Of a stretch of 32,000 bases of DNA, positions 1,581 through 19,241 are shown piece after piece; position 1 is the first letter of the stretch; each line of letters starts with the position of its first letter. The notes under the pieces are model-generated. The model was not told where the DNA came from. It saw only the letters and a list, made by a program, of their open reading frames with translations, and made no database searches. Made by a program: the position numbers and the translations under genes. The DNA is from Microcystis aeruginosa NIES-2549 (lineage in GTDB: Bacteria > Cyanobacteriota > Cyanobacteriia > Cyanobacteriales > Microcystaceae). The stretch covers positions 2,190,001 through 2,222,000 of the forward strand of contig NZ_CP011304.1 in NCBI RefSeq assembly GCF_000981785.2, read 5' to 3'.

Positions 1581-4500
1581 TCAACGTGACAGAAAAGCTC
1601 CTAAAATTTTCATGGTGTTGCTCGTTTCATAATTCAACCCTTCTACTCCCTTAATATTTGTTTGTTCATAAAGTCTAGGAGAGCGTAAAGTGTTCTGACA
1701 CTCTCCTGTTTTTAGGTTCCAAAGTTTAATCGTCTCGTCTTCACCTGCGCTGGCCAATGTGTTACCGTTGGGACTAAAACAGACTGACCTGACACTTTTA
1801 GTATGTTCACACAGGAGTTGATGAAGTTGACCTGTTTCAACATCCCAAATTCGGATTGTTGCGTCATCCCCCCCACTTGCTAGTAACTTCCCATCGGGAC
1901 TAAAAGCTACTGACCATACCCAAGACTTATGACCTTCAAAACTATTAATTAATCTACCATCTTTGACTTGCCAAACTTTGACCGTTTGATCATCACTTGA
2001 ACTGGCTAATCGCTGACCGTCAGAGCTAAAGACAACAGACCAAATTCTTCCTTGATGACCTTTAAAAGTCCGCAAAGATTGAGTCATATCATCTTCAATA
2101 GACCAGAGTTTTATAGTTCGATCTTCACTACCAGTTGCTATTAATTTTCCATCAAGACTAAAATTTACTGATAATACCCAGGCCTGATGTTCCTCAAAAG
2201 TTTTAAGACAAAATCCTCTCGGAACTGACCAAAGCTTAACAGAATTATCTCCACTACCACTTACCAGCATTTGACTATTAGGACTAAAAGCGATCGACCA
2301 TACGCGCTTTTGATGTTCTGGGGAAAAAGTGTACTTTTCATCTGTCCTAATATCCCAAAGTTTGATGGTGTTATCGTGACTGGTACTAGCAATCAGTTGA
2401 CCATTCGGACTAACCGCGACTTGATACAATAAAACCCAATAATCTTTTTCTTGTAAAATTTTAATTACTTTGCCACTTTCCCCTGACCATAATCTAATCG
2501 TTTGATCTCCACTTCCACTTATCAATGTTTTTCCATCGGGACTAAAAGCTACTGAACAGATCCAGTCAGTATGACCATTAATCTGTTGAAGACATTTATG
2601 ATTTTTGATAGACCATAATCGGATCGAACGATCTATAGAACCACTCAAAATATATTGACTATCGGTGCTGAAAGTAATTGATGATAATCGATTGCCATAT
2701 CCCCTAAAACATTGAAGACATTCTCTGGTTTTTACTGACCATAATCGCAGTGTCAAATCTTCACTCCCACTGGCTATATATTGACCGTCCGGACTAAAAG
2801 CAATTGACCAAATCCAGCTTTCATGTCCTGTTAAAGTATCAATATTTTGATATTCTCCTTCTATAATAGACCATATTTTAATGGTTTTATCCCCACTTCC
2901 ACTGGCTAGAAGTTGACCATCGGAACTAAAGGCAACTTGCCAAACCCAATCTTGGTGTCCTGTAAGAGTATGGAGACATTTTCCTGTGTCAACTGACCAT
3001 ATTTTGATGGTTTTATCAGCGCTCCCACTGGCTAAAAGTTGACCATTTGGACTAAAGGTAACACCACCTACTCGTTCTTGATGTCCTTCAAGGGTGTGGA
3101 GACATTCTCCTGTTTCAACTGACCATATTTTGATGGTTTTGTCCTCACTTCCTGTGGCTAAAAACTGACTATCAGCACTAAAAGTAACGGCTCTAATAGG
3201 AGCATAATGTTTTTGAGAAGGGTGGGGCAAAGAATGACAATTTATAGATATATCTGTTGTAATAGACCAAATTTTAACAATTCCGTCTTGTCCCCCACTT
3301 GCTAGTAACTGTCCCTCAGAATTTAAGGCTACTGACCACACCCAACTTCCGTGAGCAGGAAAACTTTTGCTTAATTCTAATTTTCCATCTTGTTTGACTT
3401 TCCAGAGGTAAATCATCCCATGACTGTCACCAGTTGCTAAAAGCTCTTCTCTTGGAAAAGAGCGATTAAACTGACTGCAAGAAATTGATAAAATACTGCC
3501 ACAAGTTTGAGGGAAAATACAGTCAAAAAACTGTGAATAGGAAAAATCTACTTGGTTGAGTCTAATGTTTGAAAAATCGACTTGTCGAATAGGGATATGG
3601 GAAAAATCGTAGCCGATTAAATGACCATTTTTCAGTATATTAAGTAAGTTAATAATATTGCCAGCAATGCCCCCAATTTGTCCAGAAGGTTGATGTTTTA
3701 ATGTCTTTAAACAATCAATTAGTTTGCTTGACAGATTGTTTTCTTGAAAATCATGGATTAAGTTCTTGATTATTGGGTGTAAAATAACATTAATTTGAAT
3801 CTTTCTTAGATAATCAGGAACAGTAGTTTTAGTCAAGGAATTACTTCTTAATAATTGGAATTTTTCAGTTTTGATTTCTTCGGTTGCTATGGTAATAATT
3901 TTTTGAGTGAAATATTCAATCAGTAGAGGATGTATGGTAAAGTAGTCATCTTTTTTATCTAACAGAATTTTGCTAGATAATGATCTGATCCCTTCTTGGA
4001 TACTTTTACCGTCAGGTTCAATGATAATATTATGTTCTAGTTCCGACAAAGAAACTGGATTTCGATTAATCGCTAACTCAAAAATAATCGCTTTTTCTAA
4101 ATCAGATAGTTGCTGAAAGTAAGAATTTAAAATAGACTCGATTTTTTCTATCAGAAGATTACCTTTTAAAAGAAAATCCGAGAGATTATTATGATGAACT
4201 CGTTGAATATGATGAGCGATAGATTTGATGAATAAAGGATTGCCGTGACAGACTTGTTGAATTAAAAATTGCCATTCATCCTCTGAACCATGAAAGGTGT
4301 CAATATCTCCCAAAATTTGTCGTCCAGTTTGATAGTCAAGTCCTTGTAACTCTCGGAAATAAGTTGAAGTTTTATTTCCCACTAACGATTCAAGTTCTTG
4401 AGGAATTTTTCGACTGGTTATAATTAAACAGCTATTGTGCTTTGACTGACCAATTGCTTGTAAAATTTCGCTATATTCTCGATAGTTTTCATGCTCAATA

Positions 4501-5336
4501 ATCGCATCAATATTATCTAAAAATAATAAACAACGATATTTGGCTAGTATCTTGATAAATTTTATCAGTTTTATTTTAAATTTATCTTCTGCCTTAAAAC
4601 TGATATTTTGTGAAATAATATTACTTGTATTTTCCAGAAATTCTAGGGGTAAAGGAGGATTCAAAAAAGACCAATAGATAACACGGGGAAATTCCTCTTG
4701 AATTTGCTCAATCAGTTTACAGACAAGAGATGTTTTTCCGATTCCTGCTATTCCGAAAATTCCGATAATTTTACACGGGGGACTATTTTGAAAAAACTTT
4801 TGTTTTAATAATTCTAGTTCTTTTTCTCTACCATAAATCTGAGAAATATCAGGAATTAATCCGAAATTATCATAATTTATTTCTGTTTTAACTGATGAGT
4901 TTTCAAGATTGGGAAATTTACGCTTATCCCATTCTTCTTCAAATTTTTTCAAATTTTCTTCTGTTGATGAATGCCAAAGATTTAGGGTAAAGTGCAAATT
5001 TGCTGCGCCTTTAGTTTTGACTCTATTATCTATTAGTATTTCCCATTCTTGTAAAACCTTAAGGTCATTTCTCATCTGTTCAACAGTAATGGCAGCCCCT
5101 AACTTTTGCTTAGTAATTCCCTGACAAAAATCTGTTAATATTTTTAAAGTTGTATTGATAATTAACTTAGGGTGTGATACACCTTCTTCGAGCCACCTGA
5201 CGGATAGGTATTTCGACCAATACTCGTGATCTGGTGATTCCTTATTAACATGAGTTAATAGTCTTTCTAAGAAGAGCAGAATTCTTTTTTTGACGGTAGG
5301 ACTGGTATTGAGATTGGGCATAGTCTGAAATTTCAC
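1581..5336 (-). CDS. STAND NTPase (NACHT/NB-ARC-type P-loop) with a pentapeptide-like linker and 14 WD40 repeats
   Basis: Walker A is GIFGIAGIGKTS (nt 4728-4763) and Walker B is LLFLDNID. The N-terminal ~170-aa helical domain ends in LNLWHSSTEENLKKFEEEWDKRK. A short pentapeptide-like stretch follows (IRQVDFSNIRLNQVDFSYSQF). Then come 14 units ending [ILV]W[SKDQN], from IYLWKV to IKLWNL, which fits two 7-bladed propellers. The ORF-track start is GTG at 5336; the first ATG is at 5321. Confidence 0.9.
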   Translation of the reverse strand: MKFQTMPNLNTSPTVKKRILLFLERLLTHVNKESPDHEYWSKYLSVRWLEEGVSHPKLIINTTLKILTDFCQGITKQKLGAAITVEQMRNDLKVLQEWEILIDNRVKTKGAANLHFTLNLWHSSTEENLKKFEEEWDKRKFPNLENSSVKTEINYDNFGLIPDISQIYGREKELELLKQKFFQNSPPCKIIGIFGIAGIGKTSLVCKLIEQIQEEFPRVIYWSFLNPPLPLEFLENTSNIISQNISFKAEDKFKIKLIKFIKILAKYRCLLFLDNIDAIIEHENYREYSEILQAIGQSKHNSCLIITSRKIPQELESLVGNKTSTYFRELQGLDYQTGRQILGDIDTFHGSEDEWQFLIQQVCHGNPLFIKSIAHHIQRVHHNNLSDFLLKGNLLIEKIESILNSYFQQLSDLEKAIIFELAINRNPVSLSELEHNIIIEPDGKSIQEGIRSLSSKILLDKKDDYFTIHPLLIEYFTQKIITIATEEIKTEKFQLLRSNSLTKTTVPDYLRKIQINVILHPIIKNLIHDFQENNLSSKLIDCLKTLKHQPSGQIGGIAGNIINLLNILKNGHLIGYDFSHIPIRQVDFSNIRLNQVDFSYSQFFDCIFPQTCGSILSISCSQFNRSFPREELLATGDSHGMIYLWKVKQDGKLELSKSFPAHGSWVWSVALNSEGQLLASGGQDGIVKIWSITTDISINCHSLPHPSQKHYAPIRAVTFSADSQFLATGSEDKTIKIWSVETGECLHTLEGHQERVGGVTFSPNGQLLASGSADKTIKIWSVDTGKCLHTLTGHQDWVWQVAFSSDGQLLASGSGDKTIKIWSIIEGEYQNIDTLTGHESWIWSIAFSPDGQYIASGSEDLTLRLWSVKTRECLQCFRGYGNRLSSITFSTDSQYILSGSIDRSIRLWSIKNHKCLQQINGHTDWICSVAFSPDGKTLISGSGDQTIRLWSGESGKVIKILQEKDYWVLLYQVAVSPNGQLIASTSHDNTIKLWDIRTDEKYTFSPEHQKRVWSIAFSPNSQMLVSGSGDNSVKLWSVPRGFCLKTFEEHQAWVLSVNFSLDGKLIATGSEDRTIKLWSIEDDMTQSLRTFKGHQGRIWSVVFSSDGQRLASSSDDQTVKVWQVKDGRLINSFEGHKSWVWSVAFSPDGKLLASGGDDATIRIWDVETGQLHQLLCEHTKSVRSVCFSPNGNTLASAGEDETIKLWNLKTGECQNTLRSPRLYEQTNIKGVEGLNYETSNTMKILGAFLSR

Positions 5337-5425
5337 TTTTTAGGATTATAGCCTGATAATCTATTCACCGTCAATTAAGTTAAGTATGAAAAAAGTTAAT
5401 ACTTGTGTAACTAGATTGAATAAAA

Positions 5426-5971
5426 TTAATCATTAACTATTGACAAATAATCAGATAAAGATTTAATAGTTAGCAAATTTTTGGGAATTAATTGATCTCC
5501 AATTTCTATAGAAAGCTTAGTATATTGGGGTCGTGAATCAGATTGAGAAGGGAGGGAAACGTGATACATAGTCAATCGAAAAAATGGGTCAAAATTAACT
5601 AAGGCAGAAATAGCTCCCTCAGAATGTTGAGAAGCATATTTTTTATTAATTGTATCATCAGTTAAGGAAAAGTAATCAAAACTGCCCGGATGTCTATGCC
5701 ATAGTCCAAGAACTTCTATGGGTTCTCGATAAAATCTGGCAATTTTGTTAGACAGGTGGTTGATATAAGCATTATCATACTCAAAATAGCCGGGGCGAAA
5801 GATAGGATTTAGACCCGAATCTAAGGTTTCTAAAATATACCATTTATTAGGGTTTCTAATTCCTAAAAAAATGCCACCTGTTTCTGTTTTATAGCTTTCA
5901 TAGGTTTCAGCTGCAATAGCTAAAAATGATTTCTGGGAAAAAATAGTTTTGATATTCTGGTAACTTAACAT
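5426..5971 (-). CDS. JAB/MPN (JAMM) metallopeptidase, stand-alone 181 aa
   Basis: It carries a complete JAMM signature. The upstream Glu lies in ETGGIFLG, followed by H-R-H-P-G-S-F-D-Y-F-S-L-T-D (HxHx7Sx2D, nt 5657-5698). It has an ATG start and lies on the same strand as both neighbours. Confidence 0.8.
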   Translation of the reverse strand: MLSYQNIKTIFSQKSFLAIAAETYESYKTETGGIFLGIRNPNKWYILETLDSGLNPIFRPGYFEYDNAYINHLSNKIARFYREPIEVLGLWHRHPGSFDYFSLTDDTINKKYASQHSEGAISALVNFDPFFRLTMYHVSLPSQSDSRPQYTKLSIEIGDQLIPKNLLTIKSLSDYLSIVND

Positions 5972-6069
5972 TGTTTTTATTCTCTTAGTTATTCATCTTT
6001 TTTTCTGTCTAAGATAGATATTTATCAAACATTTATTTTTAATAAAATTTCGTAATATAAATATCTTTT

Positions 6070-6468
6070 TTAGTTACAACTGCGATTAGCTTGTTGAATT
6101 AATCTGTGAATATTAGGTAATTCTGCTTGAGTTAAGCCGTAATATTCGATAGATCGATCATAAGAATAATAAGCTTGTTTAACTTCCTGTTTTTCTCGTT
6201 CTAAGAAATGTTCAACTTGTTGGGAATAGCGTTCAGCCTCTAAAGCATAATCTTTGGCTTTAACCAACTCCTCATTGGTTTTTTCTAAGCCTTGTACCTG
6301 TTTTTGCAAAAATTCTATCATTTTCTGATCGTCATCTTCATGGGGATCAAGATAACGACGGTTAAGAGTTTTGGCAGCCTCATCTTGCCATAGGCCTCGA
6401 ATATCTTTACGATAGTCTTGCAGAGTGCGAGATCGCTGCTGCATCTTCCAAACAATATCTTCCATCAT
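6070..6468 (-). CDS. Small all-helical protein, WXG100-like (W-Q-D-E-A-A motif), 132 aa
   Basis: GLWQDEAAKTLNRRY resembles the WxG-x-A-A-x-x-F turn of the ESAT-6 family. The rest is heptad-like and charged helix. A GGAGGA Shine-Dalgarno lies in the 20-nt gap after the upstream gene. The family call is motif-based only. Confidence 0.5.
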   Translation of the reverse strand: MMEDIVWKMQQRSRTLQDYRKDIRGLWQDEAAKTLNRRYLDPHEDDDQKMIEFLQKQVQGLEKTNEELVKAKDYALEAERYSQQVEHFLEREKQEVKQAYYSYDRSIEYYGLTQAELPNIHRLIQQANRSCN

Positions 6469-6488
6469 TTTTTATCCTCCAAAAATCA

Positions 6489-7490
6489 CTAAAATTGAAA
6501 AGGACGGTTGAATTCAATCAGACTTTCTACTCGATATTCTATTTCTCTTGTTACCCCAATTTCTAAACATTGAGCGGAGTTTCCTTGCTTTTCCGCTCCT
6601 TTGAAATCATTTCGGGCTTCTTCGGTGAAATTGCGGGCATTATTTACGGCTAAAGACATTAAATCTGCCATTTCCTGCTCATTGCTTGCCTCTAATTGCG
6701 CTCTATCAACTTCCCGTCTAGCTGCATTCGCATTTTCTAAACTACGTTCGGCAAAACTCAGGGCATTATGGGCATAATTTAAAGTAATATTCGCCTGATA
6801 GACGGCTTTTTGGGCATATCCGACGGCATTTCGACAACAATTCACCCTAGCTTGCGCTCGTGCGACTTCTTCTCTTGCTGCTTTTTCTTCTTCAATGGCT
6901 TTATTTAAGCGAGCAATCGCAGCCTGAACCTTTTTTTGGGCTTGACTAACCCTAGCTTGCTGACCAGAACAATTGGGCGCATGATATTGTCCATCCTTGT
7001 CAGTATAGCCTGAATTTTGGCAACTGGTAAGGGCGGATTGTGCGCTTTGTAATTCAGATTCTGCACTGCTTAAAATAAATTCTGCTTGCTCTCTTTCGTT
7101 TATGGCAAGTTCTAATCGGGCTTCTGCCCGTCTTAACCAGTCAATTGCAATACCTAACTGATATTCCCAATCATTTAGGGTTGATTGCGCCTGATTTTGG
7201 GTATTTTGAGCTGCTGCCAAATTTTGTTGAGCTTTTTCTAAGACTTGATGACAATTAGATAACAATTGAGCAACTTCATCATTAGCCTGATCAACTAATT
7301 TTTGATCATTTTTAGCCTGATCTTGAATAATTGAAGCATGATACAGAGCTTGACTGACTTTTTCTTCACTTTGCCTTTGATGCCATGACATTTGATCCAG
7401 GGTATCACGGGCGGTTATTTTCCAGTATCTAAGTTCTTCAATTAAGTCATTGAGAAGGTTAATGAGAATACGGGGATCTTGAATAGTCAT
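6489..7490 (-). CDS. Ala/Gln/Glu-rich coiled-coil protein, 333 aa (candidate LXG-like substrate or structural component)
   Basis: Composition is almost uninterrupted helix-forming (QAQSTLNDWEYQLGIAIDWLRRAEARLELAINEREQAEF..., EEEKAAREEVARAQARV...). One central non-helical loop is flanked by Cys (TSCQNSGYTDKDGQYHAPNCSG). It starts 5 nt after the stop of the 81-aa gene. Confidence 0.5.
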   Translation of the reverse strand: MTIQDPRILINLLNDLIEELRYWKITARDTLDQMSWHQRQSEEKVSQALYHASIIQDQAKNDQKLVDQANDEVAQLLSNCHQVLEKAQQNLAAAQNTQNQAQSTLNDWEYQLGIAIDWLRRAEARLELAINEREQAEFILSSAESELQSAQSALTSCQNSGYTDKDGQYHAPNCSGQQARVSQAQKKVQAAIARLNKAIEEEKAAREEVARAQARVNCCRNAVGYAQKAVYQANITLNYAHNALSFAERSLENANAARREVDRAQLEASNEQEMADLMSLAVNNARNFTEEARNDFKGAEKQGNSAQCLEIGVTREIEYRVESLIEFNRPFQF

Positions 7491-7495
7491 AATGA

Positions 7496-7741
7496 TTAAG
7501 ATTTATCGGGGATTTCTTGGATAAAATTGAGGATTTTCTGAACTTCTAGCCTTGAATCTTCCATTTCTGCCAAGGTTCTTGTCCAAAAACCTGTAAATTC
7601 TTCGGCGGCTGATCCTTGAAAAACTTCATCAAGCGATCGCCATGCCGTATCGAGAAATTCCAATTCTTCGCTTAAAATCAAATAATATTGATTGAGTGCA
7701 GTTTGATAGGCTAAAAGGGCTGTTTTTCGGGAATTATCCAC
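7496..7741 (-). CDS. WXG100-like helical hairpin protein (F-Q-G variant), 81 aa
   Basis: Two ~35-aa helices are joined at VFQGSAAEEFTGFW, compared with the W-x-G-x-A-A-x-x-F consensus. It starts at GTG and overlaps the preceding gene by 8 nt (GTGGATAA). Confidence 0.55.
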   Translation of the reverse strand: MDNSRKTALLAYQTALNQYYLILSEELEFLDTAWRSLDEVFQGSAAEEFTGFWTRTLAEMEDSRLEVQKILNFIQEIPDKS

Positions 7742-8000
7742 CGTTTAAATACCTCTCTAATACTTGTAACTTATGGTTTAAAAAATCATTATAGGTGGGA
7801 ATTTGGCGACTATAATAATTATTAGTCTTTTCTTGCAAATCAAGCCACATTTCGTCATGTTTTTGTCGTTTTTGGTCTTGCCAATGGGGAGAAAGATCCT
7901 CATAGGTGGTTTCCACTTCTCGCCACGCCGATTGAACGCGATCATGGAATTGTTCGAGGGTCTGTTGAAAGTGTTTGAGTTGTAAAAATGAGTCATCCAT
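7734..8000 (-). CDS. WXG100-like helical hairpin protein (W-Q-D variant), 88 aa
   Basis: The predicted helix - turn (LSPHWQDQKRQKHDEMW, mid-protein) - helix has a size and layout typical of the ESAT-6 family. It lies 14 nt downstream of the FtsK-like ATPase stop. Confidence 0.55.
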   Translation of the reverse strand: MDDSFLQLKHFQQTLEQFHDRVQSAWREVETTYEDLSPHWQDQKRQKHDEMWLDLQEKTNNYYSRQIPTYNDFLNHKLQVLERYLNGG

Positions 8001-8014
8001 GGTTAAATTAAGCT

Positions 8015-10891
8015 TTAAGCTCTTTTGATCAAACTATTAGCAATTTTCTCTATTTGTTGCTTAAATTCGGGGGTAGATTCCGTACTATAAGGTTTAAAAA
8101 GAGTAGTGCGATCGCTATCCGTATCCCGATAAAGGGCTTTAATTGGAACATCTCCATCTGCTTGTAAACGTGAGGCTTGGCGATCACTAACAAAGGTGAA
8201 AGAATCATCTTCTGACATCTGTAAAGCGACTCTATGGCGAAAATAAGCTAAATTTCGCCGAATATCAAGGACATTAGAGAAAGCTTTGATCCCTGAAAAA
8301 CTGAGGATGAGATGAATACCTTTACTCGGTCCTTCCTTCAATAATCGCTTAATTTGAGTAGTTAAGTGACTTTCTGGGCTATAAGACTGCTCATTGCTCC
8401 GTCTTAAGTCATCTACTCTATCTAATTCCGTCATGATGACGAAAATAGAAGGTTGAGTCATCAAGTCTGCTTCACTGAGTTGGTTTCTTTCGTCAAGTTG
8501 AACAATTAAATTGTTCAAAATTGCCGTAATAATTCTATTTTCGCGGTTAAATGCCGTCGTAAAGCCCAAAGGTTTTAGAATAATCTGACATACTTCTTCC
8601 AATGCTAAATGCCATTGTGTACCGGATACACTGCGATCTACCACAACAAAACGAGATTGTTGAAGATTGCCATTAATAGCAAGACTGGTCAAAATAGCTG
8701 ATAGAATTCCATAACGGGCTGTATTATAGTCTCCACCGATAACTAGAACGTTTTCACTTGGACGACGGCGTAATATCAGCCTTGCCTGTTGCCTCACACT
8801 GAATTCTTGTCCTAGCCATGTTAAGACCGGGTATTCTGCACTAAACCAGTCAGAAATGCCTAATCCTCCTTTGTAGAAAGGTAAACGGGCGATTTTTTCC
8901 CAATCTTCTGAGGTTAACCATTTACCGTAATCTAAAATATGGCGTAATTGAGGATTATCTGCTAAATTAGGCTGAGAATCTCCATCAAAGACCACTGTTT
9001 CCGTGTAATCTTCTGGGGAGAGTTGATGAGCTTTTTGAGATAAAGCGTTAATGATCATATCTCGGCGAGATTTTTCGATAAATGCCACTTTCCCAAAATA
9101 ATTAGAGTTATCATCGCCACTACGGTCATTAATAACAATTTTCCCCGGCAAATCACAGGTCATTAATAATTGTTTTCCTCGTTTTCCAAATTCTGTCAGG
9201 GCTTGAATTTCTGTTTTTGACATCTGCATTCCCATTCTCAGGTGAATATTACCCAAAATTCCCGTTTGATTCCGCATTCCTTCAGCCCCAAACCTTTGGG
9301 AAGCGAGTAACATATGAATACCCGCACTCCGCCCCTGTTGGGCTAAAATCAGTAGTTGACTGGAAGCAGTATCCTCTTTGTCGTTAAAAAATAACTCCTG
9401 ATATTCATCAATAATTAGAAGAATACGGGGCATTTTGCCCTCTGGTTGTCCTAGTCGGCGATAACCTGCCAATTCTGACACCCCTAATCTTTTAAATAAG
9501 GCGTTACGTCGTTCTTTTTCGGCGATTAATTCAGTTAAAACACTACGCGATAATTCAGGGGAGGAATGTAAGGAAACTACTTCGGTATGGGGCAAATTGC
9601 GATAGGGGGCTAATTCTACGCCATATTTGCCATCAATGAGATAAAATCTTAATTCTGAGGGACTATAACGAGTTGCCAAGCCTAAAATAAGCCCATGATA
9701 CAGGGTAGATTTTCCTGATCCAGTCATTGCTCCTAGCATACCATGAGCGCATTGATGACCTTCGCTATCTTTACCAAACCAAATATTTAATTGATCAGAA
9801 CTTCCTCTTCCACCGATAGGTGTGGTTATCCATTCTTCACTGCTATAATTCCACCAATTTTGCGGATCAATTCCTACTATATCATCCCAATCTAATTTTC
9901 GTTCGGGGGGTTTAGCTTGTTTAACTTTATCAAGTAATTGTTTTTGTAAATCTGCGTCAGGAATACTATCCGCTTTAAATTGAAGTTGACAAGATGTTGC
10001 TGTCTTTGACTGTTGACTGAGATCAATATAAAAGGCATTTTCAAACCCACTCATATTAATATCTCTAGGGAGATCAATATCTTGATTATAGTGAATAAAC
10101 ACATATCTTCCAGCTTCTGGTCCACTATTACCAATTTTTTGTAATTCTTCAATATCTCTACGGTCATATCTTTTAGGAAAATCTGCGACAAAAATCCCCT
10201 CAAATCTTTCATTGACTCGAATATCTGGGGGGAGTAAATGTAAGGCAGGAGACTGAGGATCTAAATAGGTTTCTTTGACGCGACGAATATCTTGGGTGAC
10301 TTCTAATAAATCTCGATAAACTTCGCCACTATTTTCTCTAATCAAAGCCTCAGGAAGGGAACGACGCATTAAAAATGCACCCCCATTATTAACGGGATCA
10401 CAGAAGGTATAACGTATTTGATAAGGAAGTAAAATAGCGGTACGAATCACAAGAGATTGCAGTAATTCTAGCCCCATATTACGGGTATTATTGCTACAGC
10501 GAATAATAATAGTTTTATTCCCACCAATAAAGGGAGCAAATTCGGGAACACAAAAAGTGTTATTACTCGATCTTTGTTCAACTAATTGACCAATACGAAT
10601 TAATTCTGTATGCTCTAATGAGGATAATAAATTATCGTTAATGTTCCAATTTTCCCAACGATAATCTTGCCAACTTCCTATTATTTCTAATGGTTGCTGT
10701 TCTAAATAAGATTGAGTCGATAGATAGCTATCTTGGAGAAATTTTCCAAAATAATTAGGTAATTGTTCGCCGTTTAATTTACCATGATTGAACAAAGAAG
10801 CACAAAACCCTAAATAGTCGGTTATGCGTTGACTACTTTGTTCAATTTTTTGGTTTAACCCTTCAATTTGTTGTTGCCAAAACATAAGCAT
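8015..10891 (-). CDS. FtsK/SpoIIIE-family ATPase with three tandem P-loop-like modules (EssC/EccC-like), soluble, 958 aa
   Basis: The middle module has Walker A GAMTGSGKST (nt 9704-9733), Walker B LLIIDEYQEL (nt 9392-9421) and GRSAGIHMLLASQR. The N-terminal module is degenerate (NKTIIIRCSNNTRNMG, GIFVADFPKRYD). The C-terminal module is also degenerate (VLVIGGDYNTARYG, IFVIMTELDRVDD, GPSKGIHLILSFSG). No hydrophobic TM segment is present. Confidence 0.85.
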   Translation of the reverse strand: MLMFWQQQIEGLNQKIEQSSQRITDYLGFCASLFNHGKLNGEQLPNYFGKFLQDSYLSTQSYLEQQPLEIIGSWQDYRWENWNINDNLLSSLEHTELIRIGQLVEQRSSNNTFCVPEFAPFIGGNKTIIIRCSNNTRNMGLELLQSLVIRTAILLPYQIRYTFCDPVNNGGAFLMRRSLPEALIRENSGEVYRDLLEVTQDIRRVKETYLDPQSPALHLLPPDIRVNERFEGIFVADFPKRYDRRDIEELQKIGNSGPEAGRYVFIHYNQDIDLPRDINMSGFENAFYIDLSQQSKTATSCQLQFKADSIPDADLQKQLLDKVKQAKPPERKLDWDDIVGIDPQNWWNYSSEEWITTPIGGRGSSDQLNIWFGKDSEGHQCAHGMLGAMTGSGKSTLYHGLILGLATRYSPSELRFYLIDGKYGVELAPYRNLPHTEVVSLHSSPELSRSVLTELIAEKERRNALFKRLGVSELAGYRRLGQPEGKMPRILLIIDEYQELFFNDKEDTASSQLLILAQQGRSAGIHMLLASQRFGAEGMRNQTGILGNIHLRMGMQMSKTEIQALTEFGKRGKQLLMTCDLPGKIVINDRSGDDNSNYFGKVAFIEKSRRDMIINALSQKAHQLSPEDYTETVVFDGDSQPNLADNPQLRHILDYGKWLTSEDWEKIARLPFYKGGLGISDWFSAEYPVLTWLGQEFSVRQQARLILRRRPSENVLVIGGDYNTARYGILSAILTSLAINGNLQQSRFVVVDRSVSGTQWHLALEEVCQIILKPLGFTTAFNRENRIITAILNNLIVQLDERNQLSEADLMTQPSIFVIMTELDRVDDLRRSNEQSYSPESHLTTQIKRLLKEGPSKGIHLILSFSGIKAFSNVLDIRRNLAYFRHRVALQMSEDDSFTFVSDRQASRLQADGDVPIKALYRDTDSDRTTLFKPYSTESTPEFKQQIEKIANSLIKRA

Positions 10892-11352
10892 TATTCTCCT
10901 TGTTTAGATAATTTTAAAACATTTTTTTGAGTATTTAACTGATACAGTTGAGAAGAATTAGAGTCATCAGAGGAGTTATTGTTAGTAAAGATAAATAAAG
11001 TGAACAACAAGAAAGAACCCCCCACACTCAGCCCAATGATTAGCCCGATGATTAGGTTACGAGCTTTAATTTTTAAAGACTCTATCTCATTTTTATGAGA
11101 TTCTATATTAGACTGTTCTTGGTTAATTTTACGGTCTGTTTCTTCTAATTTATCCAGACAAGCTTCAATTTCAGCCGGGGGTAATTGTTGAGAAGTTAAA
11201 GGGGAAATAGTCGTAACTTGACTTGGATTACTATAATATTTAGCAAAGCGTTTACTTAGGTCTTTTCGATTAGAATCAGCCCGATCATATTGTTGCCAAA
11301 TTTGCTCTCTATTAGCAATCATACGAGCAATTGAATTTTGAATTGTTTTCAT
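10891..11352 (-). CDS. Single-pass membrane protein with an N-terminal coiled coil, 153 aa (candidate membrane anchor for the ATPase)
   Basis: It has one hydrophobic helix (LIIGLIIGLSVGGSFLLFTLFIF) preceded by a charged heptad region (KINQEQSNIESHKNEIESLKIKA). Its stop overlaps the ATPase start as TAATG, with AAGGAG embedded in its last codons. Confidence 0.7.
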   Translation of the reverse strand: MKTIQNSIARMIANREQIWQQYDRADSNRKDLSKRFAKYYSNPSQVTTISPLTSQQLPPAEIEACLDKLEETDRKINQEQSNIESHKNEIESLKIKARNLIIGLIIGLSVGGSFLLFTLFIFTNNNSSDDSNSSQLYQLNTQKNVLKLSKQGE

Positions 11353-11377
11353 GTTTAAACCTCTGGGTTATTGTTAA

Positions 11378-11740
11378 TTAATCAACGAGTTGAGGAATAG
11401 ATAAATCACAGTCATGTAACCACATGGTTGTGCGTGAGGGTTGATAGAAAACTTGCCAAATTTTATCACCTCTATTATTGGTGTTAATAACACCTGTTAA
11501 TGAGACGACTTGATCAACAATTAAATAACTTCCACGAGTCCCCTTTCTTGCGTCATAAACCCTGCCATCTTGTCGAATAAAATGATTGCTACAATATCCA
11601 CTCCGATGAGGTTTAACAATAGCTACCACATTACGATAGTTATTTTCTTGATGACGACGCCATGTTTGAGCGTTTACTGGTAAGACTAAGCTGGTTAAAC
11701 TGACAAGACAGGTGATAACAAATAAATGAGTAATTTTCAT
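11378..11740 (-). CDS. Small secreted/periplasmic protein with a Sec signal peptide, 120 aa
   Basis: The N-terminus MKITHLFVITCLVSLTSLVLPVNA-QT has an AxA-like cleavage site. It lies 25 nt upstream of the membrane-anchor gene on the same strand. Confidence 0.6.
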   Translation of the reverse strand: MKITHLFVITCLVSLTSLVLPVNAQTWRRHQENNYRNVVAIVKPHRSGYCSNHFIRQDGRVYDARKGTRGSYLIVDQVVSLTGVINTNNRGDKIWQVFYQPSRTTMWLHDCDLSIPQLVD

Positions 11741-11796
11741 ATTTTTTGCTAAATTAATGAAAGAAATATTTGAGGTTAATTAAGACTTTTAGAAGC

Positions 11797-12276
11797 TTAA
11801 TGACAATACGTCTGATTCCAATTAGCAGTTAAATTACTACCAGAAGGAATACAATCCCGTAGGCGAGTTTTTCCATCAGATTGAATAGCAAACTCTGGTC
11901 CCCACTCTGTCTGATCAATACCGAAAATTACAACGGCAATATCTTGACAATTAGATACGATTCTATCGGCATAACTTTTCATTAAAACACCAGAAGCTAT
12001 AATGTTTGAAACAATCCTATAACTTCTTGTATCAAGAGATGTATAGCTTTCATTATAAGGGCTTAATGCGAAAATGATTTCATCTTTTCTATTAGTGGGA
12101 TTTCTCCTATTAGTTACAGTCCTTTTTGTAAGTATCACCCTTCTAACTCCTTTAGATTCTATTTCATTGACAATAGAATTAATGGTTGCTTGACAGCGAG
12201 ATTGAGCTTTAAGTGGTAAGCTAAACCCTAGCTGACTCAGTATCAAAATGAATAAAATGAAGTTAATTTTTTTCAT
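11797..12276 (-). CDS. Small secreted/periplasmic protein with a Sec signal peptide and 4 Cys, about 159 aa
   Basis: The track ORF starts at TTG 12285. ATG at 12276 gives MKKINFILFILILSQLGFSLPLKA-QS. The mature part has four Cys (possibly two disulfides). It is the first gene of the co-directional block. Confidence 0.6.
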   Translation of the reverse strand: MKKINFILFILILSQLGFSLPLKAQSRCQATINSIVNEIESKGVRRVILTKRTVTNRRNPTNRKDEIIFALSPYNESYTSLDTRSYRIVSNIIASGVLMKSYADRIVSNCQDIAVVIFGIDQTEWGPEFAIQSDGKTRLRDCIPSGSNLTANWNQTYCH

Positions 12277-12480
12277 GATTTTCAATTCGCAAGATGGTCA
12301 ATTGCTGAAAACATTACTTACTGTTAAGCTTGACTAATTCTTGGTGAATACTAAAAACTAGAATCAATGATTCACAGAAAATTCGCAAGACTACATAACA
12401 GATAGTTAAATGCTAGGGAGGATTAAAACAGTCCAGTTAACCCCTCTAGCATAATCAGAAAAAAAACAACAAACTGTTTA

Positions 12481-12936
12481 TCAAATATCTGCAATAAGTT
12501 GATTTAATTCATTAATCATTTTCTTTGCTTCTGTTCCTTCCCAAGGAACATGAGAATATGCTACAACTCCACCTCCAGTTGAACCAACAGCAATGACGGT
12601 CTGAAAAGCACTAATGATATTGGCAACTCCAAGTAGAAGTAATGGGAATCCAAATGATCTAATAGCACTAAAACCAACTAAGAGAAGGATTACGCCAACA
12701 CATAGAGGCAAGAACTTGAACTCAGTTCTAGTTTTAATACCTGCTATGCTTCTTAATGGATATGTTACTTCATCTTGGCCTATAGGGATAAATAGGAGAA
12801 CATTGGGTTTTCTGGCGATTAGTCTCTTGTTAGTTAACCAAAAACCTGATTTTAGAAAGAAAAGTATCAAGGAATAGCTAAACTCATACTCCTTCTGAAC
12901 TGACTCATCTTTTCCTAATGGGGTGTCAAATTGCAT
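12481..12936 (-). CDS. Small membrane protein, function unknown (possible PH-like N-terminal part)
   Basis: It has an ATG start and two hydrophobic helices (FLPLCVGVILLLVGFSAI, FPLLLLGVANIISAFQTVIAV). The segment WLTNKRLIARKPN...YPLRSIAGIK resembles bacterial PH-like membrane proteins, but only weakly. Confidence 0.45.
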   Translation of the reverse strand: MQFDTPLGKDESVQKEYEFSYSLILFFLKSGFWLTNKRLIARKPNVLLFIPIGQDEVTYPLRSIAGIKTRTEFKFLPLCVGVILLLVGFSAIRSFGFPLLLLGVANIISAFQTVIAVGSTGGGVVAYSHVPWEGTEAKKMINELNQLIADI

Positions 12937-13353: not shown

Positions 13354-14439
13354 TCACACCGCAAACGCTTGCTTGTGTTTATGAAAAATCTGGTCAGCGT
13401 TGTGGTACTGATGCTTAATCATCCACTGCTCCAGTTCAATGAGATACCATTGACCGGCAAATGTTCCATATTTTAAGCAAACTTTTTCATTATCGTGTAG
13501 AGTGTGCTTAAATCCAAAACGTTCTTTATACAGTGCTTCAATGGTTTCGTCCCCTTTTGGATAAGTCGTGTAGGAAATTTCAGTGTGAGCAATATCATGT
13601 TTGTAAGTCAAGATAGCTCGAATCAATTGCTGATAAACAAGATAACTTGTTCCTATTTTGCCAGTTCCCTTTTCATCATATAGAGAGAGACTTTCTCCGA
13701 TGCTTGTTACATTTTTGGGTAACATCAAATGCTTTCCTGTGTGTTTTCCTTCACAAAATGTTGCCAGTTGACAAGGCAAATAGTAGCCATATTCAGGCAG
13801 AGAATAGGTATAACGTGCAACACCGATTACCTGAGAGGGATTCTGTTCAGGATAGGCTAGAAAAATAACCGATTGGTGAGTAAATAAATCGTCGATTTCT
13901 TTGCGATAATTTTGTGACTCAGGATAGCGATTCTTGAGAAATAAGAAATAGGATTCAATTTCTGCCGGTGTTTCCGCTTCCTTGACCAGATAACCTTTGA
14001 CCTTTGGCACATCAAAAGAAAGTAAGGCTCTTTTGCAAAGAATCCAGCAGTTGCCAATGTTATTTAATACAATAAACCCAGCACAAGAAAACAGAATCTT
14101 CACATATTGCTCAATATCAGGGGTTTGGGATATATCATAGACAAAGAGAAGACCGTTATCCTGTAACATTCTTCGGACAGTCCTTAAAGTGAATAGGGGA
14201 TCTTTTTGGGTGTAATTTGTGGTCTTTAGCGTTGCAAATGTTTGTGCCGTTGAATCCTTTTCCTCGTTTGGTTTTAAATTAAGCCAACAAGAAAGTTGCT
14301 CATAGTGACGCTCTCGTATTTGACCGCTAAATAAGTGATTGACATCAACTCCATCCGATGACAGTAGCCGCACCGATGTAGATGATAATGAGATAAACTG
14401 TTTACCATTGGTTTGGTTGATTATTTGAGAAATAGCCAT
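13354..14439 (-). CDS. Hypothetical 361-aa protein (C-terminal half possibly a GNAT-like acyltransferase fold)
   Basis: It is a long ORF with an ATG start, divergent from the NB-ARC gene. I recognise no catalytic motif with confidence, so the domain hints are impressionistic. Confidence 0.4.
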   Translation of the reverse strand: MAISQIINQTNGKQFISLSSTSVRLLSSDGVDVNHLFSGQIRERHYEQLSCWLNLKPNEEKDSTAQTFATLKTTNYTQKDPLFTLRTVRRMLQDNGLLFVYDISQTPDIEQYVKILFSCAGFIVLNNIGNCWILCKRALLSFDVPKVKGYLVKEAETPAEIESYFLFLKNRYPESQNYRKEIDDLFTHQSVIFLAYPEQNPSQVIGVARYTYSLPEYGYYLPCQLATFCEGKHTGKHLMLPKNVTSIGESLSLYDEKGTGKIGTSYLVYQQLIRAILTYKHDIAHTEISYTTYPKGDETIEALYKERFGFKHTLHDNEKVCLKYGTFAGQWYLIELEQWMIKHQYHNADQIFHKHKQAFAV

Positions 14440-14739: not shown

Positions 14740-16239
14740 ATGAAGTTAAAACTCTCCGTAGCGGGACTTGAGCAAGTCAAAACCCGATGGGCGCAAAAAC
14801 AAAAAGAAGGCTGGACTAGAGAGCATTTATGCACAGAAGCTAGTCAATTTGCTGAACCTGATACCAATTGGGAGGAATTGTTCAATCTCCGACGTTACGC
14901 TTTGAATTGCACCCCAGAGACTTTAGATCGATTTTTAAGGAGGGAAAACATTCGATTAGGAGGTTTTGTTTCCTTTTGTCGAGCTTTGAACATCGACCCT
15001 TCAAAAGTCGCAGATCTAGATAATCTTTTGCAAAAACTGACTCAAGATATCGAGCCTATTTGGGTGGGGCGAGAGTCTCTTCAAAGTGATTTACTGGAAA
15101 AACTAAGAGGCGATTGTCGCATTGTCGTAATTACAGGAATAACAGGTATTGGGAAAACTGCCCTCGCCTACAAATTAGCCTTAGCTTTGTGTCAAGAAGG
15201 GTTTCCTCCTGAACTGCCTATTGATTTTGATGGGTTTAATCAACGGGAGGATCAACAGTCGCAATCAGAAGCACAAAACTTTATCAGCACAGCTATTGAT
15301 TTACTCAATCGTGGCGATGAACCTGTTACGGCAAAACAAGCAAAAAACCCAGAACAATTATTAACTCAACTGGTTAATCATCTGAGCAATAATCGTCGAT
15401 TGATTTGGTTTGATTCAATGGAAAATCTTTTACAAGGAGAACAACAAGATGGTAGTAATCGCTTTAAAGACCCCCTCTGGCGAGTCTTTTTTCAAAAAAT
15501 ATTAGAAGCCGAAGATTGTCAGACTCGAATTGTGATAACTTCGCAGGATAAGCCTGAAGATTTTGAAACTTTTAGTCAAGCTCAATATTGGCATATTCAG
15601 CCATTAATGGGATTAGAGGATCAGGAAAGTTTACAGTTATTTGAACGTTTATTTCAACAAGCAGAAGTCGAATTAATTCTTCATGGACGTAACCTTGCTT
15701 ACCTTAAAGAGATCGGAAAACTTTATGAAGGACATCCTCTCGCTATCCGCTTAATTTCTGGTGATATTATTGATAGACTGAATGGAGATATAAGCACTTA
15801 TTATGAGGAGAATAAATCCCGATTTCGACGATTAAGAGAAATGATTGATGAAGCTCAAAAAGCCAATCCTGATGATTATTACAAAGTTAACTTAATGACC
15901 AAACAATTACGAAAACAACTGCTAGAGGAGGAAATCAAAAAAACAATAGAGCGGCTTGAAAACACTTTTAAAACTGCTTATTTATTGCTTATCTATGGCT
16001 CCACTTATTCATCTTTTGAATTTAAAAATGCGTGGTTTCAAAATCTTCAATTATTTTCAGAATACGAGGAACAGGATTTAGACTTAGCTCTTTTTACCTT
16101 GTTTAACCGTTATTTAGTAGAAACTCAAAAACAACCGGGATATGAACCACATATCAAACAGCACAGCTTAATTCGCAATGTTGCTTTCAAGCATCTAGTA
16201 TCTACCCAAACAAAAGAAGGAAACCCAAATCATGAATGA
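14740..16239 (+). CDS. STAND NTPase (NB-ARC-like P-loop) with an N-terminal HTH-like domain, 499 aa
   Basis: Walker A is ITGITGIGKTALAYKLA and Walker B is RRLIWFDSMENL. The N-terminal ~95 aa (LSVAGLEQVKTRWAQKQKEGWTREHL...TLDRFLRRENIRLGGFVSFCRALNIDPSKV) match the pattern seen at the N-terminus of many cyanobacterial WD40/TPR/NACHT proteins, from memory. Confidence 0.8.
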   Translation: MKLKLSVAGLEQVKTRWAQKQKEGWTREHLCTEASQFAEPDTNWEELFNLRRYALNCTPETLDRFLRRENIRLGGFVSFCRALNIDPSKVADLDNLLQKLTQDIEPIWVGRESLQSDLLEKLRGDCRIVVITGITGIGKTALAYKLALALCQEGFPPELPIDFDGFNQREDQQSQSEAQNFISTAIDLLNRGDEPVTAKQAKNPEQLLTQLVNHLSNNRRLIWFDSMENLLQGEQQDGSNRFKDPLWRVFFQKILEAEDCQTRIVITSQDKPEDFETFSQAQYWHIQPLMGLEDQESLQLFERLFQQAEVELILHGRNLAYLKEIGKLYEGHPLAIRLISGDIIDRLNGDISTYYEENKSRFRRLREMIDEAQKANPDDYYKVNLMTKQLRKQLLEEEIKKTIERLENTFKTAYLLLIYGSTYSSFEFKNAWFQNLQLFSEYEEQDLDLALFTLFNRYLVETQKQPGYEPHIKQHSLIRNVAFKHLVSTQTKEGNPNHE

Positions 16240-18821: not shown

Positions 18822-19241
18822 ATGCCAGCAAAAGACCTCTATCACGAAGCCGTTAAAAATGCCTTAATTAAAGACGGCTGGACAATTACGGCTGATCCTT
18901 ATCCTATTGAATATGAAGACGCTGAATTGTATCCAGACCTGGCGATCGAGAAATATATTTCCGAAGAACAAAGACAACGTAAAATTATCATTGAAATTAA
19001 AAGCTTTCTTGGCCCTTCAATGATCAAAGACTTTGAAATGGCTTTGGGACAATATATTTTTTATCGTGATCTCATTCAATTAGGACAAGATGAATACCAA
19101 GAAATCTATCTGGCTATTAAAGATGAAATTTATGAGACTTTTTTCCAACGAAAATCTATTCAAGCCGTTATTAAAAGACACCAATTAGATTTATTAGTTG
19201 TCAACATCGAAAAAGAGGAGATTGTCCAATGGATAAACTAA
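18822..19241 (+). CDS. xisH: XisH family protein (fdxN-element excision controlling factor homolog)
   Basis: The N-terminus MPAKDLYHEAVKNALIKDGWTITADPY is the hallmark XisH opening. GAAGGAGG lies upstream, and a TATAAT sits at 18786-18791. Confidence 0.9.
   Translation: MPAKDLYHEAVKNALIKDGWTITADPYPIEYEDAELYPDLAIEKYISEEQRQRKIIIEIKSFLGPSMIKDFEMALGQYIFYRDLIQLGQDEYQEIYLAIKDEIYETFFQRKSIQAVIKRHQLDLLVVNIEKEEIVQWIN

Follow-up and report, generated by a model that had tools for sequence, protein, structure and literature searches.

Does a sensor of the STAND NTPase family control a type VII secretion system (T7SS)-like pump in a cyanobacterium? This question is raised by a block of genes on the minus strand (positions 1581-12285) of a 32,000-nucleotide (nt) stretch of the Microcystis aeruginosa NIES-2549 genome (contig NZ_CP011304.1, 2,190,001-2,222,000), hereafter called the window, in whose coordinates all positions are given. 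The block links genes for secreted proteins, an EccC/EssC-like ATPase with WXG100-like partners, a JAB metallopeptidase and a STAND NTPase with WD40 repeats, and the initial annotation had suggested that the JAB and STAND proteins are coupled to the ATPase module, for example as processing and trigger steps. We are highly confident that the block is a mosaic of three separately recombining units in a strain-variable hot spot. The first unit is the T7SS-like module (6070-11352) together with the Microcystis-only genes g9, g10 and g11. The second is the JAB gene plus the EAD4 adaptor domain of the STAND protein, which behave, by sequence comparison, as one co-inherited allele. The third is the remainder of the STAND protein, an NB-ARC-type NTPase with two WD40 propellers, which is a conserved NLR-like sensor/switch chassis.

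By DNA comparison, several contigs with JAB homologues proved to represent this chromosomal locus in other strains of Microcystis. Their left flank (a second STAND gene plus g12, 16290-13259) is 94-97% identical across these strains, and the right flank, from about 4950 down through the DUF3769 gene, is 92-100% identical across strains with different cassettes; what lies between about 13259 and about 4950 has been replaced. At least four different cassettes were found at this single site between g12 and the STAND chassis, three of them with TraG/VirD4-like ATPases. Since the second STAND gene and its partner belong to the conserved left flank, the variable segment lies between two STAND genes. 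No tRNA gene, Rfam family, direct repeat or inverted repeat was found to bracket it.

The positions of the breaks define the units. When the window was compared with locus L092, the sliding identity was about 55% upstream of JAB, 68-84% in JAB, 37% between JAB and STAND, 62% in the first ~330 nt of the STAND gene (5300-5000) and 97-100% from 4850 on, the break falling at the end of EAD4 (residue 138, nt 4922). The identity of the window to L091 and L092 falls to about 50% upstream of JAB, and L091 and L092, which have unlike upstream cassettes, reach 94.7% identity beginning 3 nt ahead of the JAB ATG. The g3-JAB gap (5972-6069, no strand assigned) was thus recognized, by its composition (GC 0.16) and by strain comparison, as the junction of the pump cassette with the JAB+EAD4 unit. 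Between the window allele and the allele shared by L080, L090, L091 and L092, JAB is 69-71% and EAD4 55-59% identical, and the first 600 STAND residues overall are 81-92% identical; within the latter allele the values for JAB and EAD4 are 98-99% and 95-98%. All nine of nine independent Microcystis copies of the T7SS-like cassette bear the same JAB/EAD4 allele.

The JAB gene (5426-5971, minus strand) encodes a 181-amino-acid (aa) JAB/MPN+ metallopeptidase of the Cap3/BilC-like kind, recognized by Pfam Prok-JAB (1.4e-6), PADLOC JAB (1.7e-9) and NCBIfam 6A-MBL cap2_3 (9.3e-7). Its JAMM motif is intact (E22, E30, H92-x-H94, S102, D105), and these columns are invariant in the JAB family alignment. 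Pfam, PADLOC and NCBIfam found no gene for an E1, an E2, a CD-NTase or any ubiquitin-like protein (Ubl) in the window. The STAND protein, 1251 aa from the start chosen by the open reading frame (ORF) caller, begins with EAD4 (4922-5336, minus strand; PF19959, E = 2.6e-29, residues 12-138), the N-terminal adaptor domain that varies together with JAB. The chassis behind it (1581-4921, minus strand) consists of the NB-ARC-type NTPase (1.9e-7), a linker with a weak pentapeptide match and about 13-14 WD40 repeats (2.5e-158, 13 stretches). The earlier designation of this gene as NACHT-WD40 was right as to a STAND NTPase with WD40 repeats, but NACHT scored 18.8 bits, under its cut-off of 26.7, and NB-ARC 31 bits, over its cut-off of 23.5; NACHT, AAA_16 and nSTAND are all weak matches in the NTPase region. 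None of the named STAND defence models in PADLOC matched; the hits there were HEAT-ARM_XIII (1.4e-45, a candidate model, on the WD40 part) and a marginal mad8.

That JAB and EAD4 are inherited together as one unit argues, more strongly than any other observation, for a partnership of JAB with the STAND protein, and in particular with its adaptor domain. The nearest JAB homologues (78% and 69% identical) tell a similar story. One is on a plasmid of Gloeothece citriformis PCC 7424 and the other in cyanobacterial metagenome contigs, and both lie directly upstream of a ~1247-aa EAD4-...-WD40 protein without the T7SS-like module. JAB and the EAD4-STAND protein are thus quite probably a functional pair. 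As for EAD4 at large, an exhaustive search gave 218 matches, and among the 150 listed the domain stands at or near the N-terminus in all except two, in which it is near the C-terminus. Its partners in the 84 matches scanned with Pfam are NB-ARC, NACHT and TPR, and no fusion to JAB, E2 or a pump ATPase was common to two or more of these proteins. EAD4 might conceivably be ubiquitin-like and thereby a substrate of JAB. A word-indexed search returned just 4 close or truncated matches, and the AlphaFold2 (AF2) model of EAD4, built from 5 homologues, was not used for fold search at a predicted local distance difference test (pLDDT) score of 48.7.

The gene g12 (13354-14439, minus strand) forms the conserved left bracket of the hot spot. 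It encodes a 361-aa protein that belongs to no known family; in Microcystis strains with other cassettes its counterpart is 93-94% identical, and on the Gloeothece PCC 7424 plasmid it recurs (66% identical), again bracketing a cassette that ends in JAB-STAND. The gene may be a constant part of the system. Members of its family are 361-393 aa long (L079:2850-3992 and L090:1764-2942 in addition to the window copy) and gave zero matches in Pfam, NCBIfam or PDB. By eye the C-terminus (...YKERFGFKH) looked acetyltransferase-like, and no support for this assignment was found.

As to its layout, the block is largely as it had been described. The program-made ORF list places ten minus-strand ORFs in 1581-12285, from g10 (11797-12285) down to the STAND gene (1581-5336). 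It had been stated that no opposite-strand gene interrupts them, and indeed the only plus-strand ORFs (4909-5124 and 7803-7985) are short and nested inside block genes. The gaps of 98 nt before JAB and 89 nt before the STAND gene were reproduced, with at most 56 nt elsewhere, and the gene facing the downstream end is the convergent DUF3769 gene at 56-1447. The ten-gene co-directional run was counted correctly, but 12285 is not its end, as two further minus-strand ORFs (12481-12936 and 13354-14439) extend it to 12 genes; the first divergent gene upstream of the run starts at 14740. The proposed AT-rich promoter region at 12286-12480 was not borne out, because a GC content of 0.33 compares with about 0.34 locally and 0.39 window-wide, and zero minus-strand sigma-70-like matches were seen there. 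The truly AT-rich gaps are g3-JAB, as given above, and JAB-STAND (GC 0.25), and no terminator-like hairpin was found in either of the two.

The top sigma-70-like match in 13.5 kb, TTGACG-18-TATAAT (11/12), lies on the minus strand at 5345-5374, just upstream of the STAND gene. The total of such matches in the region is no greater than in shuffled sequences, so the 5374-5345 site is a lead by consensus match only. The ORF caller starts the STAND gene at a GTG at 5336; the ATG at 5321 (MPNLNTS...) lines up with the homologue starts (MPRLNTS) and, on this alignment, is likely to be the true start. With it the JAB-STAND gap would grow to 104 nt, and the -10-like box would lie some 24 nt ahead of the start. 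In the other JAB/EAD4 allele the gap is just 38 nt.

Whether the ATPase module needs the JAB and STAND genes was asked by an ATPase scan with one genome per species, which gave 78 loci in 9 phyla (79 sources with the window). The phyla are cyanobacteria, Chloroflexota, Acidobacteriota, Bacteroidota, Verrucomicrobiota, Actinomycetota, Planctomycetota, Gemmatimonadota and proteobacteria, the last including Vibrionaceae, Pseudoalteromonas, Idiomarina and Burkholderia. Full-length ATPase relatives are ~50% identical across phyla, and the order ATPase-g6-g5-g4-g3 is kept in 66-74 of the 79 sources when each window protein is searched against the locus ORFs with jackhmmer, or in 66-79 by the count that covers g3 to g7. 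JAB was found in 3 of the 78 loci, all Microcystis, leaving 75 without it, and a broader JAB-clade profile agrees. The EAD4-STAND gene, g9 and g12 are likewise restricted to these three Microcystis loci, and g11 was detected in only one of them, or, counted by sources, in two of the Microcystis ones. The closest relative outside Microcystis (L003, ATPase 66% identical) has no JAB, EAD4-STAND or g9-g12. A broadened STAND profile added just two more loci, each of them cyanobacterial, with NTPases no farther than 10 kb away, and two weak matches, one in a Chitinophaga. The 496 flanking genes fall into 386 clusters, and the flanks are otherwise unrelated; among the two closest genes on either side (134 downstream and 129 upstream in all), Pfam found one JAB and one WD40 protein, both in Microcystis, and no ThiF or E2. 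One clear plasmid copy of the module was seen, in Deinococcus. The ATPase/WXG module is therefore a conserved, self-contained, horizontally mobile and widely dispersed entity.

These counts bear directly on the strong form of the first proposal, in which the ten genes would be one integrated system and a new T7SS subtype, with the STAND protein as obligatory trigger and JAB as obligatory processing enzyme. The co-directional genes with short gaps, the missing terminator-like hairpins in the two AT-rich gaps, the single JAB/EAD4 allele found with all nine T7SS-like cassettes, and the links of JAB relatives to FtsK plus WXG-like clusters (see below) would all fit such a system. The predicted co-variation of JAB and the STAND-WD40 gene with the ATPase cluster was, however, contradicted: the module is complete without them in 9 phyla, including L003, and the JAB-STAND pair also occurs without the module, on the Gloeothece plasmid and in other Microcystis. 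Obligate membership is thereby refuted. As the three units differ in recombination history as well, we consider the strong form very unlikely. What can be retained of the suggested coupling is that of JAB with the STAND protein, supported by their co-inheritance, and a looser JAB-pump link, which is plausible.

The pump itself is centred on an EccC/EssC(YueA)-like ATPase of 958 aa (8015-10891, minus strand) with an N-terminal helix and three FtsK-like domains (Pfam FtsK_SpoIIIE, 9.7e-31). Matches to TIGR03924 (EccCa, 2.7e-33), TIGR03928 and TIGR03925 range from 1e-26 to 1e-33, all under the equivalog cut-offs, and by sequence against PDB the protein is nearer to EccC/EssC/YukB than to FtsK (EccC 4nh0, 2e-35; YukB, 2e-24; FtsK, 5e-14). 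An intact Walker A motif (GSGKS, 391-395) and the DE pair (495-496) occur only in the middle domain. Across the family G391-x-G393-K394-S395 and D495-E496 are invariant in domain 2 only, and domains 1 and 3 are without the P-loop Lys-Ser/Thr. Domain 3 resembles domain 2 (hhalign 95%); hhalign of domain 1 with domain 2 was not significant (E = 0.035), and the ATPase nature of domain 1 rests on a co-linear Foldseek alignment with EccC. In that alignment the predicted AF2 structure (pLDDT 68) has 4nh0 as its top match (E = 1.7e-22, ~1000 columns) and appears co-linear with the three-ATPase EccC. No hydrophobic or transmembrane (TM) segment was found in the 958 aa.

A separate protein, g8 (10891-11352, minus strand), carries a coiled coil and a single C-terminal TM helix (residues 97-124) and is the predicted ATPase anchor. 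The TM segment is present in 33/33 members of its family, and g8 itself was found in 34 of the 79 sources, on either side of the module. In Bacteroidota a g8-like coiled coil plus TM segment is fused to the ATPase N-terminus (g8 profile 1.5e-19 in L025 and ~1e-7 in L023 and L024), which argues that g8 is the membrane anchor of the ATPase. The ~1080-aa ATPases of Bacteroidota and Verrucomicrobiota (L023-L026, L028, L062) all have an N-terminal coiled coil and a strong TM segment, and in the Verrucomicrobiota and other members this similar extension is without a g8 profile match.

Next to the ATPase stand two small WXG100-like helical hairpins, whose Pfam WXG100 scores are both below the cut-off. 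The first, g6 (7734-8000, minus strand; 88 aa, E = 0.029), is a W-x-D variant, and the second, g5 (7496-7741, minus strand; 81 aa, E = 0.052), has the motif Y/F-x-G-x-A-A-E-x-F with an invariant Gly43. The two are paralogues (hhalign 99.8%). Over the full length, their family profiles match the solved structures of EsxA, EsxB and HP0062 with E-values of 2e-5 to 1e-3: for g6 the matches are Helicobacter pylori HP0062 (3fx7, 1.9e-5; 2gts, 2.9e-5), and for g5 they are 4lws (7.6e-4), Staphylococcus aureus EsxA (1.3e-3) and HP0062 (1.6e-3). Then comes g4 (6489-7490, minus strand), a 333-aa all-helical coiled coil and conserved module component, whose homologues lie directly after the WXG pair, or after the ATPase where the pair was undetected, in 74/79 sources; it gave generic coiled-coil matches only in PADLOC and NCBIfam. 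The last conserved module gene, g3 (6070-6468, minus strand; 132 aa, helical), follows g4 in 66/79 sources and has no Pfam, NCBIfam or PADLOC family. It resembles g4 (hhalign 93%), and its N-terminus is weakly like g5 and g6 (75-78%). In PADLOC the core proteins gave only generic FtsK, HerA or coiled-coil matches and no listed defence system.

Composition and neighbours of the module vary between lineages. In Actinomycetota (L032-L036, L040, L050, L053, L067, L078) the ATPase, g4 and g3 occur without a detectable g5/g6 pair, the ATPases are ~1100 aa long with a hydrophobic segment near the C-terminus, and some contigs have two module copies. The Vibrionaceae copies (L041, L045, L048, L054, L056, L057, L060, L063, L075) are always followed by genes for a ~480-aa protein with a GDPD phosphodiesterase domain and a ~800-aa family-less protein, and preceded by one for a ~200-aa family-less protein, a set that is perhaps lineage-specific cargo or accessories. 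In Chloroflexota (L011:947-2188, L049, L021:7897-10563) a gene for DO-GTPase2, the double-GTPase of conflict systems, is directly upstream of the module in two loci, and a HerA-like ATPase gene is directly downstream in related loci.

Such a module invites comparison with canonical T7SS (ESX or T7SSa of Actinomycetota, Ess or T7SSb of Bacillota), with which it shares an EccC/EssC-type ATPase and an adjacent WXG100-like pair. It differs in that its ATPase has no TM helices or FHA domains of its own, with g8 as a separate anchor, in having one catalytic ATPase domain, and in its mostly diderm hosts. EccB/D/E, MycP, EssA, EssB, EsaA and YukD/EsaB have no Pfam or NCBIfam match among the ten block proteins. 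The resemblance is closer to the "mobile T7SS" noted by Zhang et al. (2012, Biol Direct, PMC3482391, Table 1 footnote 6), a solo WXG protein with a YueA-like ATPase of three HerA/FtsK domains of which the middle one is active; H. pylori HP0062 (WXG100) and HP0066 (FtsK) are an example of such a pair (PMC4978471). The module ATPase likewise has three co-linear FtsK-like domains with Walker motifs in the middle one only, solo WXG100-like proteins stand beside it, their best solved relative being HP0062, and the spread is patchy (cyanobacteria, Bacteroidota, Verrucomicrobiota, Planctomycetota, proteobacteria). However, the published note is confined to an ATPase plus WXG, whereas the present module adds the TM anchor, the 333-aa coiled coil and the 132-aa helical protein, and in Microcystis it is one of several exchangeable cassettes beside JAB-STAND.

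The module could then be a true protein exporter for competition or colony biology, moving a WXG-like dimer and helical proteins, with JAB and STAND irrelevant and g9-g11 as envelope accessories. The EccC/EssC-type ATPase and the adjacent WXG100-like pair resemble the combination that defines T7SS, a conserved membrane anchor is present that some of the ATPases carry as a fusion, the GDPD phosphodiesterase gene after the Vibrionaceae copies is possible cargo, and Zhang et al. (PMC3482391) do interpret these loci as mobile T7SS. On the other hand, Pfam and NCBIfam found no polytopic channel component (EccD, EsaA or EssB-like) in the module, no part of it would cross the outer membrane of its mostly diderm hosts, and conflict-type neighbours (TIR, patatin, DO-GTPase2 or HerA genes) stand in some flanks. 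In addition, the N-terminal hydrophobic segments of g9 and g10 look like Sec-type signal peptides, so these two proteins would not be T7SS substrates. An exporter of this kind is in our judgement unlikely.

If the module is dispensable for the JAB-STAND pair, what else occupies its place? In L090 and L091 the cassette comprises an AAA+ protein, a GYF/HHH protein, a radical-SAM-like protein, a TraG/VirD4-like ATPase (576 aa) and then JAB. In L092, which is the same as L080, it comprises GrpE, two Hsp70 proteins (one fused to vWA), a TraG/VirD4-like ATPase (540 aa), two small genes and JAB. In L093 an E2, a JAB of 329 aa, a TraG/VirD4-like ATPase (1064 aa) and an E1 follow each other, with the STAND gene further on; this arrangement resembles an intermediate between the Firmicutes-type E2-JAB-E1 cluster described below and a solo JAB. 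The three TraG/VirD4-like ATPases are 30-40% identical to each other and lie 0-2 genes from JAB, and the T7SS-like and TraG-type cassettes share no homology beyond JAB, g12 and STAND. Hence every intact alternative cassette has an FtsK/HerA-superfamily pump ATPase, of TraG/VirD4 type, near JAB. The sole cyanobacterial JAB locus without a pump is L079 (G. citriformis PCC 7424 plasmid CP001293, 30030-50575), where an Hsp70 fragment beside an insertion sequence (IS) element makes a former cassette look decayed. The neighbours of JAB-STAND in L079 are a CHAT-STAND protein, a TRADD-N-like protein, IS elements, an integrase and PIN toxins.

A metagenome scan extended this adjacency beyond cyanobacteria. 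It gave 71 non-cyanobacterial loci of the JAB clade, 44 of them informative in having enough sequence, and in 43 of these 44 an E1 gene is followed, directly or after one small gene, by a gene for an FtsK-type ATPase of 1135-1543 aa. Among the 37 loci with a full-length FtsK gene, 35 have WXG-like genes and 32 a coiled-coil gene. The full cluster of ~12 genes (L082-L084 and L094-L164, e.g. L083:4634-16315) occurs on gut, sludge and Firmicutes-type contigs. It begins with a small helical W-x-D hairpin protein, a coiled coil, two ~92-aa W-x-D hairpins and a Zn-ribbon membrane protein, and it continues with a ~55-aa protein ending in G-K-L-A (sometimes extended), an E2, a JAB of ~300-350 aa, a ThiF-type E1, an FtsK/EssC-like ATPase, a WXG-like protein and an M48 peptidase. 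The E2, JAB and E1 are Cap2/Cap3-like, and the small proteins have the same W-x-D hairpin as g6. With the window-family profile the cluster ATPases score 212-328 bits, against 112-144 bits for EccC/YukB, a rough comparison only, as the latter were obtained with a different hidden Markov model build. The cluster ATPases also have the degenerate-domain motif of the window family, DFP...G.Y..I.YN. This cluster was not found in PADLOC or in the literature searched, and it may represent a T7SS-like system in which Ubl-type conjugation really takes place.

The recurrence of pumps has to be weighed against a plainer explanation, namely that the module and the JAB+EAD4-STAND-WD40 unit are independent neighbours in a mobile-cassette hot spot and that the recurring pumps reflect conjugative or other mobile origin. 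The prevalence of JAB-less module loci with unrelated flanks, the persistence of the JAB-STAND pair with other cassettes, and a recombination junction exactly at the JAB start are all in line with it, as are the AT-rich gap before JAB and the possible promoter of the STAND gene's own. The island-like window (the second STAND and TPR pair, XisH/XisI and an MmeI-like restriction-modification enzyme) fits as well, and E1/E2/JAB operons are known cargo of integrative and conjugative element (ICE)-like and conjugative elements (PMC1779556). However, three divergent TraG/VirD4-type ATPases and one FtsK-type ATPase each lie within a few genes of the cyanobacterial JAB clade, the FtsK-type ATPase in 43/44 informative loci is embedded in a conserved ~12-gene cluster, and no relaxase or VirB4 was seen among the cluster genes of L083, the one cluster with precomputed Pfam annotation. 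Since the JAB lineage stands beside pump ATPases of three kinds, and these are families with a handful of copies per genome, such recurrence is hard to obtain by chance. We therefore regard independent neighbours as possible, though on balance somewhat doubtful.

The explanation that we prefer is a mosaic in which a JAB-EAD4 allele sits on the sensor chassis beside an exchangeable pump cassette, and we put its chances at about even. The mechanism proposed for it builds on the observed anatomy, mosaic structure and gene associations, and each of its biochemical steps is one that we infer. At the inner membrane, g8 would hold a hexameric ATPase of EccC/EssC-like type. This ATPase would bind the hairpins g5 and g6 as a heterodimer, probably via a C-terminal signal as in EsxB-EccC, and the heterodimer would either be moved or act as a cofactor; g4 and g3 may be co-substrates or structural partners. 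On the sensor side, the WD40 propellers would recognise a trigger, NTP-dependent oligomerisation would follow, and the EAD4 domains would become clustered. JAB, allele-matched with EAD4, may then act on or with the EAD4 platform, removing a block or a conjugate in a Cap3/BilC-like manner, or may be activated by proximity. The JAB-STAND pair could finally act on the adjacent pump module or be fed by it, a step for which the odds seem evenly balanced. The same holds for the wider claim that a functional link, and not mere adjacency, connects JAB/STAND with the pump cassette, a judgement that follows from the exchange of T7SS-like for TraG/VirD4-like cassettes and from the wiring of the JAB clade to E2, E1, FtsK and WXG genes elsewhere.

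Several observations weigh against this explanation. According to the EAD model (Kaur et al. 2020, PMC7159879), a second copy of an EAD is expected on the partner effector, usually in an adjacent gene; no second EAD4 was found in JAB, g3-g12, the other window proteins scanned or the related loci, where the EAD4 profile matches the STAND gene alone. A further protein of EAD4-NB-ARC-TPR architecture (P0246) stands without JAB beside it. Independent recombination of the pump cassette and of JAB+EAD4, with their junction at the JAB start, is unexpected for a tightly co-adapted pair, and since 75/78 ATPase loci lack JAB, the pump module can do without it. Separate transcription is permitted by the AT-rich gap that precedes JAB and by the promoter-like site, close to consensus, in front of STAND. 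As both TraG/VirD4 genes and E1/E2/JAB operons ride on conjugative elements, their adjacency could be due to shared mobility. The AF2 models are weak too (pLDDT 68 for the ATPase and 49 for EAD4).

A fuller version of the preferred explanation would treat the EAD4-STAND-WD40 protein and the Cap3-like JAB as a fixed control arm into which FtsK/HerA-superfamily cassettes plug at domain-exact junctions. This arm would descend from a Ubl conjugation system (the small G-K-L-A protein, E2, JAB and E1) that is hard-wired, in gut Firmicutes, to a T7SS-like ATPase and to WXG-like partners, so that peptidase or Ubl-type modification would control a type-VII-like translocase in a conflict or immune response. 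We offer it only tentatively, as it is less probable than its opposite. With regard to function in general, a conflict or defence role is somewhat more probable than housekeeping secretion, given the strain-variable hot spot between two STAND genes, the MmeI-like enzyme nearby and the occasional TIR, patatin, DO-GTPase2 or HerA neighbours of the module. Neither a polytopic channel nor an outer-membrane component was found, so these genes alone do not account for export from a diderm cell.

The initial annotation had also stated that the combination is not part of any described system. The core was in fact noted in 2012 (PMC3482391) and the EAD-STAND class in 2020 (PMC7159879), but the combination itself was not found described. 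With the EAD-coupled systems of Kaur, Burroughs, Iyer and Aravind (2020, eLife, PMC7159879; 2021, PMC8195603) the locus shares an N-terminal EAD4 on a repeat-sensor STAND NTPase of a cyanobacterium and an adaptor end that diversifies fast at strain level on a constant core. It differs from them in that the adjacent gene encodes a plain JAB without EAD4, that the swap unit is JAB+EAD4, and that there is no vWA-MoxR, iSTAND or GAP1 core. With Cap3/BilC of type II CBASS and BilABCD (PMC10097602, PMC10557695) it shares the JAB family by profile with an intact JAMM motif, and the JAB relatives are flanked by a Cap2-like E2, an E1 and a small protein that has a conserved Gly close to its C-terminus. 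The differences are that the window JAB has no E1, E2, CD-NTase or Ubl, its partners being a STAND sensor and pump-ATPase cassettes, and that the E1 and E2 of its relatives are separate genes linked to FtsK and WXG-like genes. For a JAB+EAD4 swap unit, exchangeable pump cassettes beside a STAND sensor, or E2-JAB-E1 genes wired to FtsK/WXG, no description was found in a literature coverage that was incomplete, and their novelty is unproven.

The remaining genes of the cassette are confined to Microcystis or nearly so. The two that the initial annotation labelled as secreted do have N-terminal hydrophobic segments. The 162-aa g10 (11797-12285, minus strand) has a signal-peptide-like N-terminus with the segment at residues 3-27, and homologues in the Microcystis copies of the cassette plus one weak match in L008; in one Microcystis copy (L085, 2989-3606 and 3610 onward) it is tandemly duplicated. 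The 120-aa g9 (11378-11740, minus strand) also has a signal-peptide-like N-terminus (segment at residues 1-25, ending VNA|Q), and its homologues are confined to Microcystis loci. Both gave zero Pfam, NCBIfam or PADLOC matches. The 151-aa membrane protein g11 (12481-12936, minus strand) lies inside the replaced segment and has two hydrophobic segments and a weak exosortase-like match (3.4e-5) below the cut-off.

Beyond g12, at 14740-17554 on the plus strand and divergent from the block, lie the gene of a second STAND NTPase (nSTAND3/NACHT-like, 499 aa) and, overlapping with it, that of a 440-aa TPR protein. Nearby (18822-19570 and 20186-22885) are an XisH/XisI pair and a methyltransferase-endonuclease of MmeI-like (type IIL/BREX-type) kind, an island-like context, and a CCA-adding enzyme gene is at 23432-24649.

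The locus presents an NLR-like sensor that keeps its NTPase-WD40 body, swaps its adaptor together with a partner peptidase and separately swaps an ATPase cassette. The JAB+EAD4 swap unit is a direct lead to what EAD adaptors bind. The minimal T7SS-like module, present in at least nine phyla, now comprises six genes instead of two and a fusion-supported anchor, which makes its reconstitution feasible. In dozens of metagenomic loci the JAB clade, in turn, connects the chemistry of E1/E2/JAB with ATPases of the FtsK type and with WXG-like proteins. To our knowledge, YukD/EsaB has no settled role in type VIIb systems. If functional, the E1/E2/JAB link would bear on why these systems carry this ubiquitin-like protein, for which a 2006 study detected no conjugation and proposed an assembly or structural role. 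For the organism itself, the finding makes the locus a candidate strain-variable immunity site in Microcystis, a bloom-former under heavy phage pressure.

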